From UHGV virus genome UHGV-1384413: a stretch of 64,000 bases of DNA. One strand, 5' to 3'. This stretch comes from a virus. This document shows, one piece after another, positions 7,257 through 16,550 of this stretch. The notes beneath the pieces were generated by a model that worked only from the letters and a program-made list of their open reading frames with translations, was not told where the DNA came from and searched no databases. Made by a program: the position numbers and the translations under genes. Each line of letters opens with the position of its first letter. The first letter of the stretch is position 1.

Positions 7257-8018
7257 TTACAGTTCCATAAAGTTTTCTACGATGTCAATGAATGTTTTAT
7301 CAGAGAAAGCGTCAACAGCCCCGTTAAACCAAACTGGGATGCCGCGATCCTCATACTGGTAAATGTCACTACGTGAAATGCCATTCTCCCCTAAATGCTG
7401 TGAGTCGTATTTGTTAACGATCAGCAGTTTGGTCCCCTTATTACAGGCAGGGAATAGCTCCCAGTTAAAATTGATAACTGTGTTGGAGCACCCTATAAGG
7501 ATAACCATATCATTGCTCGTCAGAGAAGTCAACAGGTCATACATGTCTGTATACTTTGGAGCTACTTCTCCGAAGAACACGACATTAGGCTTAACCCAAG
7601 TATACTTGCTTGCATCTACCTCAGAGTATCCAATGTCTTTAATGACGTTACTCCCTTCATCATCCTCGTAGACTATTTCTGGCAAATATCCGTGGACATG
7701 TAAAATATCTTCATGTTTTACACCAGCACGCTCCAGCAAATCATCTACATTGGTTGTCAGGTTGATCACGCGACCAGACCAGCGGGAATACCATTCAGCG
7801 ATCCGGAGATGTGCAAGGTTAGGATCAACACTGCCCAGAGCTACACGCCGTGCATTGTAAAAGTCATGAACCTTATAGTAGTTCTTGGCAAAGGTGTGGA
7901 TGTTACACACCTCATCGATGCTGAAATTCTCCCACATTGCAGTGCCACCAGATCGGAAAGTTGGGATACCAGATTCAGCGCTCAAACCAGCACCGGAGAT
8001 AATGATCAGTCGTCGCAT
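7257..8018 (-). CDS. Sir2-family (sirtuin-like) NAD-binding protein
   Basis: 253 aa; GAGLSAESGIPTFR, TTNVDDL, VHGY, KPNVVFFGE, IGCSNTV and LLIVNK match sirtuin motifs in order; no CxxC zinc-ribbon insert. Confidence 0.6.
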   Translation of the reverse strand: MRRLIIISGAGLSAESGIPTFRSGGTAMWENFSIDEVCNIHTFAKNYYKVHDFYNARRVALGSVDPNLAHLRIAEWYSRWSGRVINLTTNVDDLLERAGVKHEDILHVHGYLPEIVYEDDEGSNVIKDIGYSEVDASKYTWVKPNVVFFGEVAPKYTDMYDLLTSLTSNDMVILIGCSNTVINFNWELFPACNKGTKLLIVNKYDSQHLGENGISRSDIYQYEDRGIPVWFNGAVDAFSDKTFIDIVENFMEL

Positions 8019-8026
8019 AAGTGTCC

Positions 8027-8377
8027 TCAGTAGATGTTTTGTTTAATCTCTATTCCAAACTTTTTAAACGAGTCAGCAGCAAGCATGAATTTACGAGCAG
8101 CTGATGGGTTAGAAGTATGCACGAAAATCTTCACGTTGTCAACTACAGGAGGCTTACCAAATATAAATTTTTCCTCCAGCATAGATAGGCAATCGTACCC
8201 TTCAAATACCTCTCCAAGGTCGTTGTCCATGTGCCACTCAGAAACGCGCCTGTAGAGCTTTCCCTTATCGTTAATAAAATCCATAAACTCAGAGGAATTC
8301 TTTAGCCAAAGAGCATCTGGGAGCCCATAATTTGACGGATCTCTCAAGTCATCCAGCCACACAATCAACTTCTTCAT
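8027..8377 (-). CDS. hypothetical alpha/beta protein, receiver-domain-like pattern (speculative)
   Basis: 116 aa; MKKLIVWLDDLRD..HTSNP..K pattern; translationally coupled (ATGA overlap) to the RNA ligase gene upstream. Confidence 0.35.
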   Translation of the reverse strand: MKKLIVWLDDLRDPSNYGLPDALWLKNSSEFMDFINDKGKLYRRVSEWHMDNDLGEVFEGYDCLSMLEEKFIFGKPPVVDNVKIFVHTSNPSAARKFMLAADSFKKFGIEIKQNIY

Positions 8378-9288
8378 TGCATATAGTCCTCGTTGTGGAA
8401 ATAGTAGTCAAGTATCTCACGACGTTCTTGCTCCAGGAGGCAGTTCCACACATCTTCTGTGTAATTGCTACGAATGAAGTTTACCATGCCATAAAACTCT
8501 TCGTCAACACGTTTAAAGATATCATCATCCCAAATCTTCCAAGCTTTACCCCTCATTACGGCCTTCCGTGCCAAATAGTATGGAGACTTGATCTTCAGCT
8601 GCAAATCATAAGGGTAGTAAGGCTTACGAATCATATACCCTTCACCTCTTGTTTCTGCAGCTAATTCTTTTGCATAGCTGAACGGAATTTCACGCACAGT
8701 GTGAGGACGTTTTGCACCAAGGTATTTGGCAATCCCATCTAAAGCTGCTTCTGGTAGCATTATTCCAGAATCATTATATCTGCAACCTATCAAATATGCG
8801 CCATGATCTTCCTGAACAATATGCGGATCTGAAGGGTGGCAAATTTCAAACATGAATGTCATGTTTTCATGGCCCATAACCCTCTTGATAAGATCTAAAT
8901 TACCACATTGCTCCTGGATTGTTTCTTTTGCGAGGTTACAATATGGAGAATCAAGAGACCCGGTTGTTGAGAACAATAGTTCACCTTTATGAGATGATAC
9001 CACACCAAGGAATCCGTTCTTTTTCTCTACCGCCGTCACAAGTTTATTGTCAGGCAGGTTGGTGGAATTTTCTCCCAAGTTAAACACTTTTGTGAAGGGC
9101 CATGCCACAACATTTCCTTCATTACCGACAACAATGCCTCGGCACTCCAGCAAACGAGGAGACAAATGCCATAAATTGTTGTAGAATACTTTTCTGGCAT
9201 ATTTATAGATCTTTAACCCAAGATCCGGGTAATATCTGCTGGTTACAAGACCTTTGTCAACTAGGTCGTCTGCATTAAAATACTTCAT
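8374..9288 (-). CDS. ATP-dependent RNA ligase-like nucleotidyltransferase (Rnl2-like)
   Basis: 304 aa; motif I EKKNG (Kx[DN]G), motif IV-like EGYMIRKP and motif V-like LKIKSP, as in T4 Rnl2-type ligases recalled from memory. Confidence 0.6.
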   Translation of the reverse strand: MKYFNADDLVDKGLVTSRYYPDLGLKIYKYARKVFYNNLWHLSPRLLECRGIVVGNEGNVVAWPFTKVFNLGENSTNLPDNKLVTAVEKKNGFLGVVSSHKGELLFSTTGSLDSPYCNLAKETIQEQCGNLDLIKRVMGHENMTFMFEICHPSDPHIVQEDHGAYLIGCRYNDSGIMLPEAALDGIAKYLGAKRPHTVREIPFSYAKELAAETRGEGYMIRKPYYPYDLQLKIKSPYYLARKAVMRGKAWKIWDDDIFKRVDEEFYGMVNFIRSNYTEDVWNCLLEQERREILDYYFHNEDYMQ

Positions 9289-9352
9289 TATACATTCCTC
9301 ATTTGTTATTTTGTCCCTTTATCCTGCCACACAAATAACTTGGTGTCAACAC

Positions 9353-9381
9353 TTGAAATTAACAAAACAGTTAGGTATACT
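9353..9381 (+). promoter_or_regulatory. sigma70-like promoter upstream of kinase gene
   Basis: TTGAAA, 17 bp, TATACT; about 30 bp upstream of the 9410 start. Confidence 0.45.
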
Positions 9382-9409
9382 ATCATTAAAATTAAAACGG
9401 AGAGTTACT

Positions 9410-9820
9410 ATGTCTAAAATGCTATATATCGTGCGTGGTCTACCAGGGTCTGGCAAATCAACACTGGCAAATGCGCTATCTTTAGAAGGTCTGTATCCAC
9501 ATTTTGAGAACGATATGTTCTGGTACGACGATGACGGCAATTACAATTGGGATGCAAGTAAAGTAACACTTGCAGCAAAATGGTGCAAAGATAACGTAGA
9601 AGATATGATGCGTATGGGCTACGACCGTATCGTGGTAAGTAATACGTTTACAAAAGAAAAATATGTGCAAGAATATATTGACATGGCGATCAGTCATGGA
9701 TATAGTTATACCGTGATCGTGGTTGAAAACCGCCATGGTAATAAAAGCATTCATGATGTTCCAGACAGGGTTGTGGATCGTATGGAACGCCAGCTTAAAA
9801 ACTGCATTAAACTTAAATGA
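9410..9820 (+). CDS. polynucleotide kinase (P-loop)
   Basis: 136 aa from ATG 9410 with RBS acggagag; Walker A GLPGSGKST at the N-terminus; the track start 9254 is rejected. Confidence 0.6.
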   Translation: MSKMLYIVRGLPGSGKSTLANALSLEGLYPHFENDMFWYDDDGNYNWDASKVTLAAKWCKDNVEDMMRMGYDRIVVSNTFTKEKYVQEYIDMAISHGYSYTVIVVENRHGNKSIHDVPDRVVDRMERQLKNCIKLK

Positions 9821-9827
9821 GGAATGT

Positions 9828-10382
9828 ATGAAATACTTTGTAACAAGCGACACACACTTTCTCCACCAGCGGGTAATGGAGTTCGACTCATGTCAAAAAC
9901 ACAGATCTCAGTATGATCACAATCTTGACAGTATGAATGCGGGAATCATCACCAAGTGGAACTCTGTTGTGTCACCTGCAGACACTGTGTTTCACTTGGG
10001 GGATATTGCGTGCACTAATGATAAGAATATCAACAAATTGCTTCCAGATGTTCTAAATATGTTGAACGGACATATTATTCTTGTTCGTGGTAACCATGAC
10101 ACAAGGACGACTGTCAGAATTATGAAAGAGTTCGGTCATGAGGTTGTAGATTATTACGAGCTTCGCCACAACAAGAATTTGATCTGTATGAGCCATTACC
10201 AGTTTGCAAAGTGGAACAGAAAGCCTCACGGATCAGTCCAACTGTTCGGTCATGCTCACGGAACCACACAGCAGTTGTTTGGCAGGCAGTTTGATGTCGG
10301 TTGGGATGTGTGGGGGAGACTCTTACCATTAGAAGAGGCATACCGTATTGCAATGAGTCTTGCTATTGACAGCGGGGAGTAA
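9828..10382 (+). CDS. metallophosphoesterase (calcineurin-like), candidate RNA 3'-phosphatase / 2',3'-cyclic phosphodiesterase
   Basis: 184 aa from ATG 9828 with RBS gaggaa; complete MPE signature SDTHF, HLGDI, GNHD, GHAHG. Confidence 0.7.
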   Translation: MKYFVTSDTHFLHQRVMEFDSCQKHRSQYDHNLDSMNAGIITKWNSVVSPADTVFHLGDIACTNDKNINKLLPDVLNMLNGHIILVRGNHDTRTTVRIMKEFGHEVVDYYELRHNKNLICMSHYQFAKWNRKPHGSVQLFGHAHGTTQQLFGRQFDVGWDVWGRLLPLEEAYRIAMSLAIDSGE

Positions 10383-12544: not shown

Positions 12545-12832
12545 GGTTGTTTTCGTGTATCATGATGAATATCCAATTTAAAGATGAGTTTGATGGCTTT
12601 ATCTCCGGATGCTTTGAAACAGGGTTCGGAGAAGACTGAGTTCCCCTTAGAGGGCTTGATAGTGCACCACACTTAAAATGGTAGGGGCAGCCAGCACATG
12701 ACGATGTGACCCCAGCCAACCTGTAATAAGGTCGAGCCAGAGCGCGGTAATGGGTATCTGGTAACCCACTTGTTGGGTCTTGCTGGTCCAGGACGCTGGG
12801 CAAGTCGCAGGGAATACCACCCTGCGGCGAAC
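12545..12832. other. GC-rich non-coding island (candidate structured RNA)
   Basis: No plus-strand ORF; all three minus frames stay open with Pro/Arg/Ser-rich low-complexity translations (track ORFs 12484-12954); perfect hairpin cgcaggg-aatacca-ccctgcg at 12806-12826. Confidence 0.35.
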
Positions 12833-12861
12833 TTGACAATCAGTATTTGCCGTGATAAAAT
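12833..12861 (+). promoter_or_regulatory. consensus sigma70 promoter with extended -10
   Basis: TTGACA 12833-12838, 17-bp spacer, TGaTAAAAT ending at 12861. Confidence 0.55.
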
Positions 12862-12889
12862 CCACCTATCACGTGATAATGGAGGAAAC

Positions 12890-13228
12890 ATGGCGGATAC
12901 AACTAAAAAGCGTCGCCGTAGAGGCAGACCTCTGAAAGAGGAGTCCAACGCCATTCAGCTAGAGAAGAACATTCTTGATATGAAGGAATCTTTTATAGCG
13001 ATGGTTCCAGAAGCTCACAAAGTTTTAAGAGAGCTGATGTTGGACCCGAAAACCAAACAAAATATTCGTCAAAGCATTGCAGAGTATGTTCTTGATAAGG
13101 CAGACCGAATGCAGGAAGAATATGATGAGATGTTTGGTGAAGAGGAAGAGGTGGTAGTAGAAGAGGCTGAAAAACCAGCACCTTTTATGCCATTTACCAC
13201 AGAAATACAGCCTGTTGGCAATAGTTAA
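12890..13228 (+). CDS. small DNA-binding-like protein with basic N-terminus and acidic C-terminus (terminase small subunit candidate, speculative)
   Basis: Start moved to ATG 12890 (RBS ggagga, promoter at 12833); MADTTKKRRRRGRPLK AT-hook-like N-terminus; track start 12770 lies in the GC island. Confidence 0.4.
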   Translation: MADTTKKRRRRGRPLKEESNAIQLEKNILDMKESFIAMVPEAHKVLRELMLDPKTKQNIRQSIAEYVLDKADRMQEEYDEMFGEEEEVVVEEAEKPAPFMPFTTEIQPVGNS

Positions 13229-13237
13229 AATATTTTC

Positions 13238-13266
13238 TTGACAAACTTTGCTTAACAGTGTAATAT
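13238..13266 (+). promoter_or_regulatory. sigma70-like promoter for the tRNA cluster
   Basis: TTGACA 13238-13243, 17 bp, TAATAT 13261-13266. Confidence 0.5.
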
Positions 13267-13324: not shown

Positions 13325-13399
13325 GCCCTGTTAGCTTAGTGGATAAAGCAGCGGCCTTCTAAGCCGTTGACACTGGTTCGAGTCCAGTACGGGGTGCCA
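13325..13399 (+). tRNA. tRNA-Arg (anticodon TCT)
   Basis: Manual cloverleaf: acceptor gccctgt/acggggt, D stem gctt/aagc, anticodon loop cuUCUaa, T loop ttcgagt, CCA encoded. Confidence 0.7.
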
Positions 13400-13403
13400 A
13401 ATT

Positions 13404-13490
13404 GGGGAGTTATCCCGTAGAGGTAGCGGTGTAGACTGTAAATCTATTGTCATTGCGACTCGGGTGGTTCGACTCCACCACTCCCCACCA
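13404..13490 (+). tRNA. tRNA-Tyr (anticodon GTA), long variable arm
   Basis: Acceptor ggggagt/actcccc, anticodon loop cuGUAaa, variable arm tgtcattgcgactcg, T loop ttcgact, CCA encoded; D stem imperfect. Confidence 0.65.
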
Positions 13491-13604
13491 AATTTACATT
13501 TTTAAATGCATAAATTATACAGATAATGACATTGATATTTATCGTCGTTTATACTAGTCACTAACTGCTCGAAAATCAGTGTCATTATCAGTGTAATTTA
13601 TAAA

Positions 13605-13695
13605 GGAGAGTAGGGAGCAATGGTGCTCAAGCGGTCTTGAAAACCGTCCCATTGAGGACGACTTGATGATGGTTCGATTCCATTACTCTCCGCCA
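13605..13695 (+). tRNA. tRNA-Ser (anticodon TGA), long variable arm
   Basis: Acceptor ggagagt/actctcc, anticodon stem gcggt/accgt with loop cuUGAaa, 20-nt variable arm, T loop ttcgatt, CCA encoded. Confidence 0.65.
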
Positions 13696-13793
13696 TATTG
13701 TTAACCTTGTAATTAAGCGAAAGCCGGAAGCAGAACCGGATTATCAAATGTTACAGTCGTCATCGCCGACTAGCAACATGGTTAACATTATTC

Positions 13794-13890
13794 GCTAGGT
13801 AAGCCCTTTGGCAAGGGCGAGGATTTTTAATCCTGAAAATAGACGAGGTAGTCGTTGAATACATAGGTGGTTCGATTCCATCACCTAGCA
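13794..13890 (+). tRNA. atypical tRNA-like gene (best fit anticodon TTT, Lys-like) with ~30-nt variable region
   Basis: Perfect 7-bp acceptor gctaggt/acctagc and canonical T arm ggtgg-ttcgatt-ccatc, but the anticodon arm is 4 bp plus a G.G pair around loop uuUUUaa, followed by a 30-nt stem-loop region; no CCA. Confidence 0.4.
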
Positions 13891-13896
13891 CCTTTT

Positions 13897-13972
13897 GCTG
13901 ATGTAGCACAATTGGCAGTGCAATTGATTTGTAATCAATAGGTTGCAGGTTCAAGTCCTGCCATCAGCACCA
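13897..13972 (+). tRNA. tRNA-Thr (anticodon TGT)
   Basis: Acceptor gctgatg/catcagc, anticodon stem attga/tcaat with loop uuUGUaa, T arm gcagg-ttcaagt-cctgc, CCA encoded. Confidence 0.7.
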
Positions 13973-13973
13973 T

Positions 13974-14048
13974 GGCCCTGTAGCTGGAAGGTTCAAGCAA
14001 GCGACTCATAATCGCCAGACGGTGGTTCAATTCCACCCAGGGCCACCA
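13974..14048 (+). tRNA. tRNA-Met or tRNA-Ile2 (anticodon CAT)
   Basis: Acceptor ggccctg/cagggcc, anticodon loop cuCAUaa, T arm ggtgg-ttcaatt-ccacc, CCA encoded. Confidence 0.65.
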
Positions 14049-14059
14049 AATAATAAATA

Positions 14060-14136
14060 CTCCGCGTAGCTCAGCTTGGTAGAGCGCCTGATTTGGGATC
14101 AGGAGGTCGAGTGTTCGAATCACTCCGTGGAGACCA
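14060..14136 (+). tRNA. tRNA-Pro (anticodon TGG)
   Basis: Acceptor ctccgcg/cgtggag, D arm gctcagcttggtagagc, anticodon stem cctga/tcagg with loop uuUGGga, CCA encoded. Confidence 0.7.
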
Positions 14137-14182: not shown

Positions 14183-14452
14183 ATGTATACACTTAAAATT
14201 GTAGAACGTGTAAATCCAACCCATACTTTAGATCTTCGTGACGATTTCAACCCTCTTGCTGTAAATCTTCGAGAGTCGTATCATGAACTAAGCTGCGATG
14301 CAGTTGTGGTCTTCTTTGAAGACAACTCTGAAGGGGCAGTAGCTTGTGTTGTTGATAGCGAGCAGAAGTTTTATATTTACAGAGATGTGGATGCTTACTT
14401 GATGAATGAGAATGCGGTTACTGTCAGAATCATCCACCGAGTGCCTCGATAA
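14183..14452 (+). CDS. hypothetical protein
   Basis: 89-aa ORF with RBS aaaggaacc; followed by a hairpin terminator. Confidence 0.45.
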   Translation: MYTLKIVERVNPTHTLDLRDDFNPLAVNLRESYHELSCDAVVVFFEDNSEGAVACVVDSEQKFYIYRDVDAYLMNENAVTVRIIHRVPR

Positions 14453-15241: not shown

Positions 15242-15666
15242 TGTCTAAGATTTACGGACCGTGTTCTGAAAAGCAGAAGATGATCCTAGAGAACGATGCA
15301 GATATTTTGGTGATCGGAGGTGCAGCTGGGTCTGGCAAGTCGTTCCTCTTGCAGCTAATGCCGCTTAAAATTATTGATGACCCGCACAGCTCTGTGGTTA
15401 TGTTCCGAAGAACAACTCCCCAGTTGGAAGGTGAGGGTGGGCTATGGCCTAAAGCAGTAGCTATTTACAGTGATCTGCCTGAAAACATTAAACCAAAGTT
15501 CAGAGAGAAGGATCATAAGTTTATTTTTCCACGGTTTGATCCGAGCACTGGCAAGTGGGATAGGAGCAAAAAGGGGGCCGTTGTAAAATACTGCCACATG
15601 GAGTATGTCCAAGATAAGCTTAACCATCAAGGCCTTGAGTACACCATGGTTTGCTTCGATGAGGGT
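15241..15666 (+). CDS. terminase large subunit, ATPase N-terminal part (exon 1)
   Basis: Walker A GGAAGSGKS; ORF ends straight after Walker B MVCFDEG with TAA at 15667. Confidence 0.7.
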
Positions 15667-16550
15667 TAATTTGTAGCTCTCGTAAAACCTCCCTAATTGC
15701 GGGGAAATCTTTATTATTGACACCACCAACCTGTCATGGTAACATGATAGAGGCTTCGAAGAGAGATCGAAGGTATGGTAACAGTGTGTTAATTTAGATA
15801 ATCCGCAGCGAAGCATCCGAGAGGATGAACGTTCAACGACTAGTCGAAAGACGTAGAATCAAGCGATTCGAAACGGGAGGGTGAATGTGTAATACTAAAA
15901 AAATGTATGGATTGCCAAAGAGTTCTGCCTCTTGATGATTTCTTTTTATCATCTAAGAGCAAGGATGGATACTCAGGTACATGCAAGGAATGCTATATGT
16001 ACTACAGGAAGAATGGATCTCGTAGAAACAAAAATATGGTTAAGAGAGATGATGCAGCATCTTTTGTTCAAGACTTGCTGAAGAAAGGTGAGCTTTTTGA
16101 ATGTAAATCTTGTCATGAAAGTATGCTTGCTGATAGTTTTTACACAAAGCGTGACTATGGTAAAGTGTATCTGGTTACGAACAGGTGTAAGATGTGTGAA
16201 AAGTTTTATCAGATTGAGAAGAAATTTCACATAACAAAAGATGAATACTATCGTTTACTCTCAGATCAAGATCATAAGTGTGCCATTTGTAGAATATCTC
16301 TTGATGAGTATAGGACGCAAGGGTACAGAGATTTCTTTTGTGTTGATCATGACCATAAAACTGGTGCTGTAAGAGGGTTGCTTTGTGATAAATGCAACAG
16401 AGCTTTAGGGTTCTTCCAAGAGGATGAGGAAACCATTCTTAGAGCAGCAGAGTATTTGCACATTCATAAGATATAGTCTGGTCTGCATGGAGACATGCAG
16501 CTGCCTGAAAATGGCGGGGCAAGACTAGCGACCTTGCCCGAACATAAACG
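15667..16550 (+). mobile_element. probable group I intron (boundaries approximate) carrying an HNH homing endonuclease ORF
   Basis: Interrupts the terminase reading frame right after Walker B; ORF-free flanks 15667-15906 and 16477-16550 contain hairpins such as gggcaag/cttgccc; stop at the 5' junction, candidate omega-G at 16550. Confidence 0.5.
15907..16476 (+). CDS. HNH homing endonuclease
   Basis: 189 aa; several CxxC pairs and canonical FCVDHDHKTGAVRGLLCDKCNRALG HNH core. Confidence 0.75.
   Translation: MDCQRVLPLDDFFLSSKSKDGYSGTCKECYMYYRKNGSRRNKNMVKRDDAASFVQDLLKKGELFECKSCHESMLADSFYTKRDYGKVYLVTNRCKMCEKFYQIEKKFHITKDEYYRLLSDQDHKCAICRISLDEYRTQGYRDFFCVDHDHKTGAVRGLLCDKCNRALGFFQEDEETILRAAEYLHIHKI

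Follow-up and report, generated by a model that had tools for sequence, protein, structure and literature searches.

A tRNA-like gene among the clustered tRNAs of an rV5-like phage

We examined a tRNA-like RNA gene, hereafter X, at positions 13794–13890 (+) of a 64,000-nucleotide stretch of the virus genome UHGV-1384413 (the window). A first-pass annotation had described the element as tRNA-derived and structurally atypical, with a Lys-type anticodon and an oversized variable region, and had read it as either an altered tRNA-Lys or a decayed pseudogene. X is best explained as a working gene whose product is a non-canonical tRNA-like RNA specific to phages. The 1.1-kb region around X matches rV5-like coliphages of the genus Vequintavirus, among them B9-1, EduardKellenberger, nomo and Murica, at 97–98.6% identity, and the gene is made up as follows:

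13794–13890, +: X, from the acceptor stem's 5' end to the discriminator, A73
13794–13800 and 13883–13889, +: acceptor stem, GCTAGGT/ACCTAGC, seven perfect pairs
13803–13818, +: D arm, GCCC-TTTGGCAA-GGGC; alternatively 6 bp (GCCCTT/AAGGGC) closing a loop of 4 nt (TGGC)
13820–13834, +: 'anticodon' hairpin, AGGATTTTTAATCCT, 15 nt compared with the normal 17, flanked by G13819 and G13835
13835–13865, +: variable region between the 'anticodon' hairpin and the T arm, 31 nt, GAAAATAG-ACGA-GGTAG-TCGT-TGAATACATA
13835–13841, +: 5' linker of the variable region, GAAAATA, A-rich and conserved
13842–13856, +: extra hairpin, G-ACGA/GGTAG/TCGT-T, closed by G13842
13857–13865, +: 3' linker, GAATACATA, conserved, abutting the T stem on its 5' side
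13866–13882, +: T arm, GGTGG-TTCGATT-CCATC, canonical
13890, +: discriminator A73

The features of a tRNA elbow are present in X (7-bp acceptor stem, D arm with G18/G19, TΨC loop), and the perfect acceptor stem and canonical T arm reported by the first-pass annotation lie at the positions it gave. For the D arm, the 6-bp form with the 4-nt loop is favored by both RNAfold and RNAalifold. A canonical anticodon arm spans 17 nt (5 bp and a 7-nt loop, with U33, a purine at position 37 and a nucleotide 26), and X has no such arm. Its 'anticodon' hairpin can be drawn in two registers, either as AGGAT-TTTTA-ATCCT (5 bp and a 5-nt loop; register 1) or as AGGA-TTTTTAA-TCCT (4 bp and a 7-nt loop, with UUU at 13826–13828; register 2). 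Register 2 contains a G·G mismatch and leaves no nucleotide 26. The variable region, put at about 30 nt with a stem of its own in the first-pass annotation, comprises 31 nt including the extra hairpin and exceeds the limits of both class I (4–5 nt) and class II (~10–24 nt) tRNAs. Class II variable arms are stem-loops of roughly 10–24 nt on linkers of 1–2 nt, and we know of no decoding tRNA with a variable region as long as 31 nt. The sequence 3' of X is CC (13891–13892) followed by T (13893), so CCA is not encoded.

X is the fourth gene of a tRNA cluster that lies downstream of a promoter of host type:

13238–13266: strong sigma70-like promoter, TTGACA-17-TAATAT, upstream of the tRNA cluster
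13325–14136, +: tRNA cluster of seven genes (ARAGORN), in the order Arg(tct), Tyr(gta), Ser(tga), X, Thr(tgt), Met/Ile(cat), Pro(tgg)

The gene order is identical in the annotations of relatives. Besides X, rV5-type phages retain just six tRNAs, all canonical, tRNA-Tyr among them, and ARAGORN finds no further tRNA-Lys gene in the window. At least four of the other cluster tRNAs (Ser, Thr, Met, Pro) encode CCA, unlike X. The open reading frames (ORFs) flanking X (12770–13228 and 14183–14452) have no Pfam match. Two neighboring genes of the cluster have peculiarities of their own. The tRNA-Ser(tga) gene (13605–13695, +) is a class II tRNA of 91 nt by ARAGORN that scores below the Rfam tRNA gathering score, and its identity among Vequintavirus genomes (88–96%) is lower than that of X or the other cluster tRNAs. 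The tRNA with the CAT anticodon (13974–14048, +) is labeled Met in most records and Ile in the BASEL genomes (AUA, implying lysidine at position 34).

Two other roles for the X locus were considered and rejected. The sole ORF overlapping X is a 64-aa ORF with a TTG start on the minus strand (13760–13954), and the substitutions follow an RNA-type covariation pattern. An intrinsic terminator formed by the D-arm hairpin and the T-run would be weak, with a 5-nt gap before the Ts, and is absent in other genera.

Model scores, folding and existing annotation

All structural features that the first-pass annotation described are confirmed at its coordinates, and so is its view of a tRNA-derived, structurally atypical element. 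The Rfam tRNA model (RF00005) scores X at 35.5 bits (gathering score 29). In the Rfam alignment X has the G·G mismatch, 4 bp, the loop UUUUUAA and a 26-nt insertion. This is the register that the first-pass annotation had chosen (loop uuUUUaa, Lys UUU, on a weak stem with a G·G pair), but the preferred form of the hairpin is the other one: the 5-bp AGGAT/ATCCT stem with a 5-nt loop has both comparative and thermodynamic support, and 4 bp with the G·G pair and a 7-nt loop is the alternative. RNAfold predicts a cloverleaf with the extra hairpin (minimum free energy −34.2 kcal/mol, z = −3.3, reached by 0 of 200 shuffles) and closes the 'anticodon' hairpin to 6 bp with a 3-nt loop. Taken together, such support is much more than chance would give.

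ARAGORN, one of the checks suggested at the outset, does call a gene in the window at 13794–13892, but as 'tRNA-???(atcc)' and with a fold unlike that of the first-pass annotation. We rejected the ARAGORN fold (stem ATTTT/AAAAT, 4-nt anticodon 'atcc') because its two stem strands lack complementarity in the other genera. A covariance model (R1) that we built on 12 family sequences scores X in the window at 102.9 bits; family members score 78–120 bits, and all other tRNAs in ~2 Mb of fetched phage DNA score 30 bits or less. Orthologues outside Vequintavirus fall below the RF00005 gathering score and have tRNA-Sec as their best match in the clan (23–39 bits; gathering score 47). ARAGORN overlooks X in every Seunavirus, Mydovirus and other non-Vequintavirus genome examined. 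Rfam families other than tRNA and tRNA-Sec, including tmRNA, YrlA, mascRNA and the viral tRNA-like structures (TLS), gave no match to X.

GenBank labels for X conflict, and comprise tRNA-Lys (BASEL phages, tRNAscan-SE-based), tRNA-OTHER, tRNA-Pseudo and tRNA-Stop(tta), with other copies unannotated. A literature search found no publication describing X.

Distribution of the X family

BLAST with X alone recovered full-length copies in about 114 Vequintavirus records and weaker matches in Seunavirus and Mydovirus, where the loci are unannotated or carry spurious small coding sequences. The architecture at the Seunavirus and Mydovirus loci is the same and the stem sequences are different. BLAST, pattern scans of viral and metagenome contigs, and R1 together yielded 26 distinct sequences (alignment A3), and a further five distinct sequences came from GenBank phages, so that 31 distinct homologues were examined. 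The R1 searches covered pattern-seeded loci; two loose pattern scans of viral contigs gave mainly chance matches, which were filtered by R1.

Carriers in Vequintavirus are of the rV5 and Av-05 types. Seunavirus carriers are PVP-SE1, 4MG, SSE121, KE22, EspYZU15, NINP13076 and FENT2, and Mydovirus carriers are KB57, Mydo and KPP-1; Raoultella phage Ro1 also has X. In Henunavirus, X is found in Hena1 and pEp_SNUABM_01, annotated as 'tRNA-sup(tca)', and further copies lie on metagenomic contigs of 137–152 kb. Salmonella phage vB_SenP_UTK0002, an N4-like podovirus of the Schitoviridae, has an unannotated homologue among its clustered tRNA genes (OQ359892.1 66355–66462, positions 401–508 of our locus L243). 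This copy has the loop CAUCAAA and is 88–89% identical to the Erwinia Henunavirus copies. The presence of an X homologue in a Schitoviridae phage implies that the gene has been transferred horizontally at least once between unrelated phage families, here into an N4-like phage. We saw no neighboring gene common to the Vequintavirinae and the Schitoviridae carrier when product annotations were compared.

A scan of 185,579 bacterial and archaeal genomes gave no match to the 3' motif of X, and the 5'-half pattern in the same genomes gave 34 loci, none scoring above 22.6 bits and none a family member. On sequence comparison, the X family is conserved across the Vequintavirinae and appears specific to phages.

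Two loci carry a chimeric gene. In V18 (L236, ~855–945) and O157 typing phage 4 (L237, ~845–930), the 5' part of tRNA-Tyr is joined to the 3' part of X, including the 3' strand of the acceptor stem, and the deletion in V18 takes Tyr, Ser and X. X was apparently lost from these phages by recombination between the near-identical T arms of Tyr and X.

The tRNA gene directly 5' of X in Seunavirus and Mydovirus is itself non-canonical (L004 1119–1194, L005 1118–1194, L007 1051–1125). Its loops are ACGAUUC (7 nt, with C33 and U37), ACAGAUCC (8 nt) and ACGAUA (6 nt), for which the ARAGORN calls are Ile(gat), ???(agat) and ???(ga), respectively. U1-A72, G73 and an encoded CCA are further features of this gene, for which the window has no counterpart.

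Covariation and conservation

The proposed pairs are maintained by compensatory change. In a MAFFT alignment of 12 sequences made independently of R1, 98.9% of cells are paired, and both partners have changed in 11 of 23 pairs. Across the 26 distinct homologues, 99.1% of cells are paired and compensatory double changes occur in 13 of 22 pairs; the covariation score is 0.508, compared with 0.193 in shuffles (reached by 0 of 500) and 0.10 or less with slid partners. All seven acceptor pairs are kept in these homologues, with double changes in five of them. Three of the four D-stem pairs and three of the five pairs of the 'anticodon' hairpin stem covary, as does the T stem.

Covariation extends to the tertiary elbow pair between D-loop G19 (13811) and T-loop C56 (13873), which is G:C in 18 sequences and U:A in 8; the D-loop GG is replaced by GU exactly where UUA replaces UUC in the T loop. 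Two T-loop sequences occur, TTCGATT and TTAGATT, and TTAGATT is found solely with the D loop TTTGTCAA. Compensation is also seen in the extra hairpin, which differs in length and sequence from genus to genus and where ACGA/TCGT changes to ACGG/CCGT in Av-05-type phages and the Seunavirus stems are CCCCC/GGGGG, CCUCC/GGAGG or CUCUC/GAGAG, with a closing G·U or U-A pair.

In collinear Vequintavirus genomes X is 96–100% identical, like tRNA-Thr and tRNA-Met, and the flanking spacers are 76–98% identical. In Av-05-type genomes X is kept at 92% identity between flanks that are unrelated. From these comparisons X is very probably a real, selected structural RNA. We reject the decayed pseudogene offered by the first-pass annotation because of the compensatory covariation and a level of conservation equal to that of true tRNAs.

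Constant and variable parts of the family

C2-G71 is present in 26 of 26 distinct sequences and G1-C72 in 23 of 26; A8 and U14 are invariant, and G26 is constant. The D loop is UUUG(G/U)CAA, or UUUGGUAA in the UTK0002 copy and three others (L220, L221, L231). The 'anticodon' hairpin is 14–16 nt, that is 1–3 nt short, in all 31 distinct homologues. The variable region, 31 nt in the window, reaches 38–41 nt in other genera, with single-stranded linkers of 7–9 nt. GAAAA follows the 'anticodon' hairpin in all 31 distinct homologues except L161 and UTK0002 (GTAAAA), and AUACAUA precedes the T stem in every homologue. AUACAUA was part of two search patterns, and its invariance holds also for sequences found by BLAST or by the 5'-half pattern. 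A search by eye for additional pairs or pseudoknots involving GAAAA and AUACAUA gave nothing convincing. Outside Vequintavirus, U73 and an encoded CCA occur in 18 of 18 distinct sequences, and most copies are separated by just 2–3 nt from the CCA of the tRNA before them.

Within the extra arm, the motif GAACUAACAGUA is conserved in nine Mydovirus-, Henunavirus- and UTK0002-type loci (L130, L131, L161, L213, L217, L227, L242, L243, L245), the flanking stems of which differ. FENT2 and KPP-1 differ by one and the same C-to-U change at two positions of the extra arm that are not paired together.

The loop of the 'anticodon' hairpin varies by genus. Most Seunavirus and Mydovirus copies have AGGUC-CAUCCA-GACCU, with the loop variants CAGCCA, CUUCCA, CCUCCA and CCUCAA; Henunavirus, UTK0002 and several contigs have GGGC-[C/U/A]AUCAA[A/G]-GCCC, with A33; and one contig has AGGG-GUGAUA-CCCU. 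Av-05-type phages have AGGAU-UUAUA-AUCCU and rV5-type phages, including the window, AGGAU-UUUUA-AUCCU. Position 33 is A in most orthologues. The would-be anticodon is not conserved among orthologues, being UUU (rV5), UAU (Av-05), UCC or GCC (6-nt loops), or UCA with A33. The Seunavirus and Mydovirus carriers have clusters of 21–24 tRNAs; tRNA-Gly(tcc) and tRNA-Cys(gca), both canonical, are among them, and several of these genomes also have tRNA-Lys. Because the loops vary by genus on 14–16-nt arms beside canonical tRNAs, there is no codon that the X family decodes throughout, and the copies of most genera cannot present a canonical anticodon.

Resemblance to tRNA-Lys in the rV5 lineage

Only in rV5-type sequences can the loop be read as U32 U33 U34 U35 U36 A37 A38. 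Of the 11 nucleotides at positions 13822–13832 of the window (GATTTTTAATC), 10 agree with positions 30–40 of E. coli tRNA-Lys (GACTTTTAATC, as printed in PMC11464382), and this is the only such site in the 64-kb window. The upper stem of X departs from that of host tRNA-Lys, with G-C, G-C replacing U-A, U-A. The discriminator, U73 in the family, is A73 in the rV5 lineage. The identity elements for LysRS are the UUU anticodon and A73; X has UUU, U33, A37 and A73, with a loop of non-canonical geometry. CCA has been lost in the rV5-like lineage, where the corresponding sequence is ACCT in the window, ACAT in L114 and TACA in Av-05-type phages.

In this phage the loop UUUUUAA, A73 and the 10/11 match agree with the Lys-type reading of the first-pass annotation, but an altered tRNA-Lys does not describe the family, which has other loops and U73 elsewhere. 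Comparison across genera shows the Lys-like stem-loop and A73 to be derived features of the rV5 lineage. Since orthologues in other genera carry non-Lys loops, it appears that an older, non-canonical scaffold was retargeted in this lineage to give the Lys-like loop.

RNA-repair genes and tRNA-targeting defences

About 3.4–5.4 kb upstream of X, the window encodes a healing-and-sealing cassette:

8374–9288, −: Rnl1-type RNA ligase (Pfam PF09511, 1.1e-14)
9254–9820, +: P-loop kinase ORF (PF13671, 9.7e-10)
9723–10382, +: calcineurin-like phosphoesterase ORF (PF12850/PF00149)

The same three genes are annotated in phage EduardKellenberger as RNA ligase, polynucleotide kinase and phosphoesterase. 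A T4 healing-and-sealing pathway of this type mends tRNA-Lys cut by PrrC (PMC10264068). Two host tRNAs are known targets of the nucleases that defend against coliphages: retron-Eco7 and Septu cut tRNA-Tyr, and PrrC and PARIS cut tRNA-Lys (PMC11555353, PMC13096335, PMC11464382). Phage tRNAs counter nucleases of both specificities (PMC11464382, PMC11555353, PMC13096335, PMC10264068). The resistance of T5 tRNA-Lys to PARIS maps to changes in the anticodon stem (PMC11464382). From this setting we infer a functional link between the repair cassette and X.

Other features were noted in the same part of the window. A gene for a Sir2-family protein (7257–8018, −) adjoins the RNA ligase gene. A group I intron (15657–16500, +; Rfam RF00028, 50.9 bits, barely over the gathering score of 50) interrupts a gene that is the large terminase subunit in relatives, and terL is uninterrupted in phage EduardKellenberger. 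The ORF within the intron (15907–16476) has an Endonuclease VII domain (PF02945, 2e-21).

Interpretation

The covariation of the acceptor, D and T stems and of the D-loop/T-loop pair shows that X RNAs keep a predicted tRNA L-shape. The same comparisons show two constant oddities, a short anticodon arm and a large variable region in which A-rich linkers flank a hairpin. Because the anticodon arm is non-canonical and the loop changes between genera, the core job of the family is probably something other than ordinary decoding. Anatomy and context lead us to favor, tentatively, a role as a tRNA mimic directed against nucleases. X would share its transcript with the tRNA cluster, under promoters of the host type, and would be released by RNase P and 3' trimming; trimming would probably halt at the encoded CC, with A76 added by the host CCA-adding enzyme. 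The RNA would then act as a tRNA mimic toward tRNA-binding proteins. In the rV5 lineage, the hairpin and discriminator would have been remodeled to resemble host tRNA-Lys(UUU), and because of this resemblance the likeliest partners would be anticodon nucleases of the PrrC, RloC or PARIS type, possibly also LysRS. Acting as a decoy, as an inhibitor of anticodon nucleases or as a competing substrate that is hard to cleave or can be sealed again, X might protect host tRNA-Lys, in parallel with repair by the Rnl1 ligase, kinase and phosphoesterase.

A more far-reaching version, which we consider doubtful, is that X founds a phage-specific class of mimics with a fixed L-scaffold, a giant variable region and a short, re-targetable hairpin. 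That the hairpin would be rewritten in each genus (UCC-like, UCA-like with A33, UUU/Lys-like) for different host nucleases or factors is equally doubtful, and so is the corollary that X would be a decoy or non-cleavable inhibitor, an RNA anti-defence element rather than a substitute decoder.

Several points weigh against the mimic. X is missing from V18 and O157 typing phage 4, both still viable, and because these phages lost it X is dispensable on laboratory hosts, as is usual for accessory anti-defence genes. The invariant U73-CCA, G1-C72 and C2-G71 of other genera would fit an aminoacylated, ribosome-active tRNA as well, and the loss of CCA in rV5-like phages could reflect relaxed constraint. 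The resemblance to tRNA-Lys could be a lineage-specific neofunctionalization, or in part a coincidence in a U-rich loop. If the family has a single function, the loops found elsewhere (A33, 5–6 nt) copy no single host tRNA in any obvious way.

X could alternatively be a working tRNA-Lys(UUU), charged by LysRS, reading AAA and AAG, resistant to nucleases of the PrrC and PARIS types by virtue of its altered stem and giant variable region, and replacing cleaved host tRNA-Lys as T5 tRNA-Lys does. The 7-nt register used by the Rfam model at 35.5 bits has U33, UUU and A37, the T loop and elbow are canonical, and UUU and A73 arise in the same lineage; rV5-like phages have no other tRNA-Lys, several relatives with a non-Lys X loop do carry one, and tRNAscan-SE-based annotations say tRNA-Lys. 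The upper stem is also unlike that of the host, as in PARIS-resistant T5 tRNA-Lys (PMC11464382). However, the stem in this register has just 4 Watson-Crick pairs and the G·G, nucleotide 26 is missing, and the favored fold has 5–6 bp with a 3–5-nt loop. The 31-nt variable region lies beyond that of decoding tRNAs known to us, CCA is not encoded, unlike in at least four cluster tRNAs, and the orthologues, with A33 and 5–6-nt loops, cannot decode canonically, so neofunctionalization would be needed. Other annotators use tRNA-OTHER, tRNA-Pseudo or tRNA-Stop, or omit X. We regard a working tRNA-Lys as unlikely, though worth keeping in view, and give about the same weight to a function unrelated to lysine or nucleases, with the Lys-like loop incidental. 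Such a function might be processing punctuation for RNase P and 3' maturation combined with a stability module in the polycistronic tRNA transcript, service as the ligand of another tRNA-binding protein (CCA enzyme, modification enzyme, EF-Tu or a toxin), or service as a substrate for non-ribosomal aminoacyl transfer. It would suit a gene whose best-conserved parts are the elbow, the acceptor end, U73-CCA and the GAAAA and AUACAUA linkers rather than an anticodon loop that varies freely between genera, and which in most genomes follows the CCA of its neighboring tRNA at a distance of 2–3 nt; T4, with the stable RNAs rnaC and rnaD in its tRNA cluster, sets a precedent. A pure RNase P signal would nevertheless have no need of an 'anticodon' stem and an extra hairpin kept by compensation, loops conserved within clades (AUCAA across diverged sequences; CAUCCA) argue that the loop is not neutral, and the 10/11 match to the tRNA-Lys anticodon stem-loop together with the switch to A73 is hard to dismiss.

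Neither remaining alternative is at all probable. The atypical arms, the loss of CCA in the rV5 lineage, the tRNA-Pseudo label used by some annotators and the non-lethal loss in V18 and O157 typing phage 4 would suit a decaying, functionless tRNA pseudogene, but 99% pairing, 13 compensated pairs and tertiary covariation in at least five genera and two phage families, conservation on a par with true tRNAs and above spacers, and retention both when flanks were replaced and after horizontal transfer make decay very unlikely. A tRNA-Sec-like or opal-suppressor RNA reading UGA, the annotation in Hena1 and pEp_SNUABM_01, draws on the NAUCAAA loop (UCA) of Henunavirus, UTK0002 and several metagenomic members, on the possible 6-bp/4-nt D arm and long extra arm, and on tRNA-Sec being the top Rfam family for non-Vequintavirus members (23–39 bits). 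All of these scores are below the gathering score of 47 (best orthologue 39.0), and a phage tRNA-Tyr reaches 36.3 bits; the acceptor/T architecture is 7/5 rather than 8/5, position 73 is U or A rather than G, and position 33 is A rather than U. The window loop, UUUUUAA or UUUUA, has no UCA, which excludes this reading for the window by sequence, and we give it next to no credence here.

An entire, well-studied subfamily of large phages of enterobacteria (rV5, PVP-SE1 and several BASEL phages included) conserves a tRNA-shaped RNA that is unfit as a normal decoder in most genera. If X is a mimic or decoy, it would represent a new principle of RNA-based counter-defence, which would explain its retention among just seven cluster genes; to our knowledge, all phage tRNAs that defeat tRNA-cleaving immunity (PARIS, retron-Eco7, Septu, PrrC) are canonical. 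If X decodes, the range of structures known to work as a tRNA would widen (4-bp anticodon stem, 31–41-nt variable region). On either reading, X belongs to an RNA family that is well delimited, open to test and already equipped with a covariance model, and its annotation as tRNA-Lys or suppressor tRNA calls for caution.

Comparison with known systems

Like X, class II tRNAs and tRNA-Sec (RF00005, RF01852) have a cloverleaf in which an extra hairpin separates the anticodon arm from the T arm. The extra hairpin of X stands on conserved single-stranded linkers of 7–9 nt, whereas class II linkers are 1–2 nt. With tRNA-Sec the X family further shares a possible 6-bp/4-nt D arm, a UCA loop in some orthologues and sub-threshold Rfam matches; tRNA-Sec has an 8/5 architecture and G73, in contrast to 7/5 and A73 (U73 in relatives) in X.

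T4 rnaC (species 1) and rnaD (species 2) are small, stable and partly tRNA-like RNAs that, like X, lie within a phage tRNA cluster, and they are co-processed with the tRNAs. They show no homology to X: the R1 score on rnaC is 6.8 bits (E = 0.41), and rnaD has no R1 match. The predicted folds of the two T4 RNAs are unlike that of X, which keeps a complete cloverleaf. The known tRNA mimics (the tRNA-like domain of tmRNA, YrlA, viral 3' tRNA-like structures and mascRNA) have, like X, an L-shaped acceptor/T/D core with an altered anticodon region. Unlike them, X is a free-standing gene of tRNA size with both ends in the acceptor stem and without an mRNA-like or Ro-binding module.

Conceptually closest to X are the anti-defence phage tRNAs, namely T5 tRNA-Lys against PARIS AriB, T5 and T6 tRNA-Tyr against retron-Eco7 and Septu, and mycobacteriophage tRNAs mutated in the anticodon loop (PMC11464382, PMC11555353, PMC13096335, PMC10264068). 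As with these tRNAs, X lies in a phage tRNA cluster and has an anticodon stem-loop that resembles a nuclease-targeted host tRNA (Lys) and differs from it in the stem; the tRNA-Tyr and RNA-repair genes in the window complete a similar setting. The anti-defence tRNAs are canonical, chargeable molecules of 75–90 nt with a 5-bp anticodon stem and a 7-nt loop, whereas the arm of X measures 15 nt, its variable region is 31 nt long, CCA is not encoded and the loops of its orthologues cannot decode. Because X is not a canonical tRNA, we do not class it with the anti-defence phage tRNAs.

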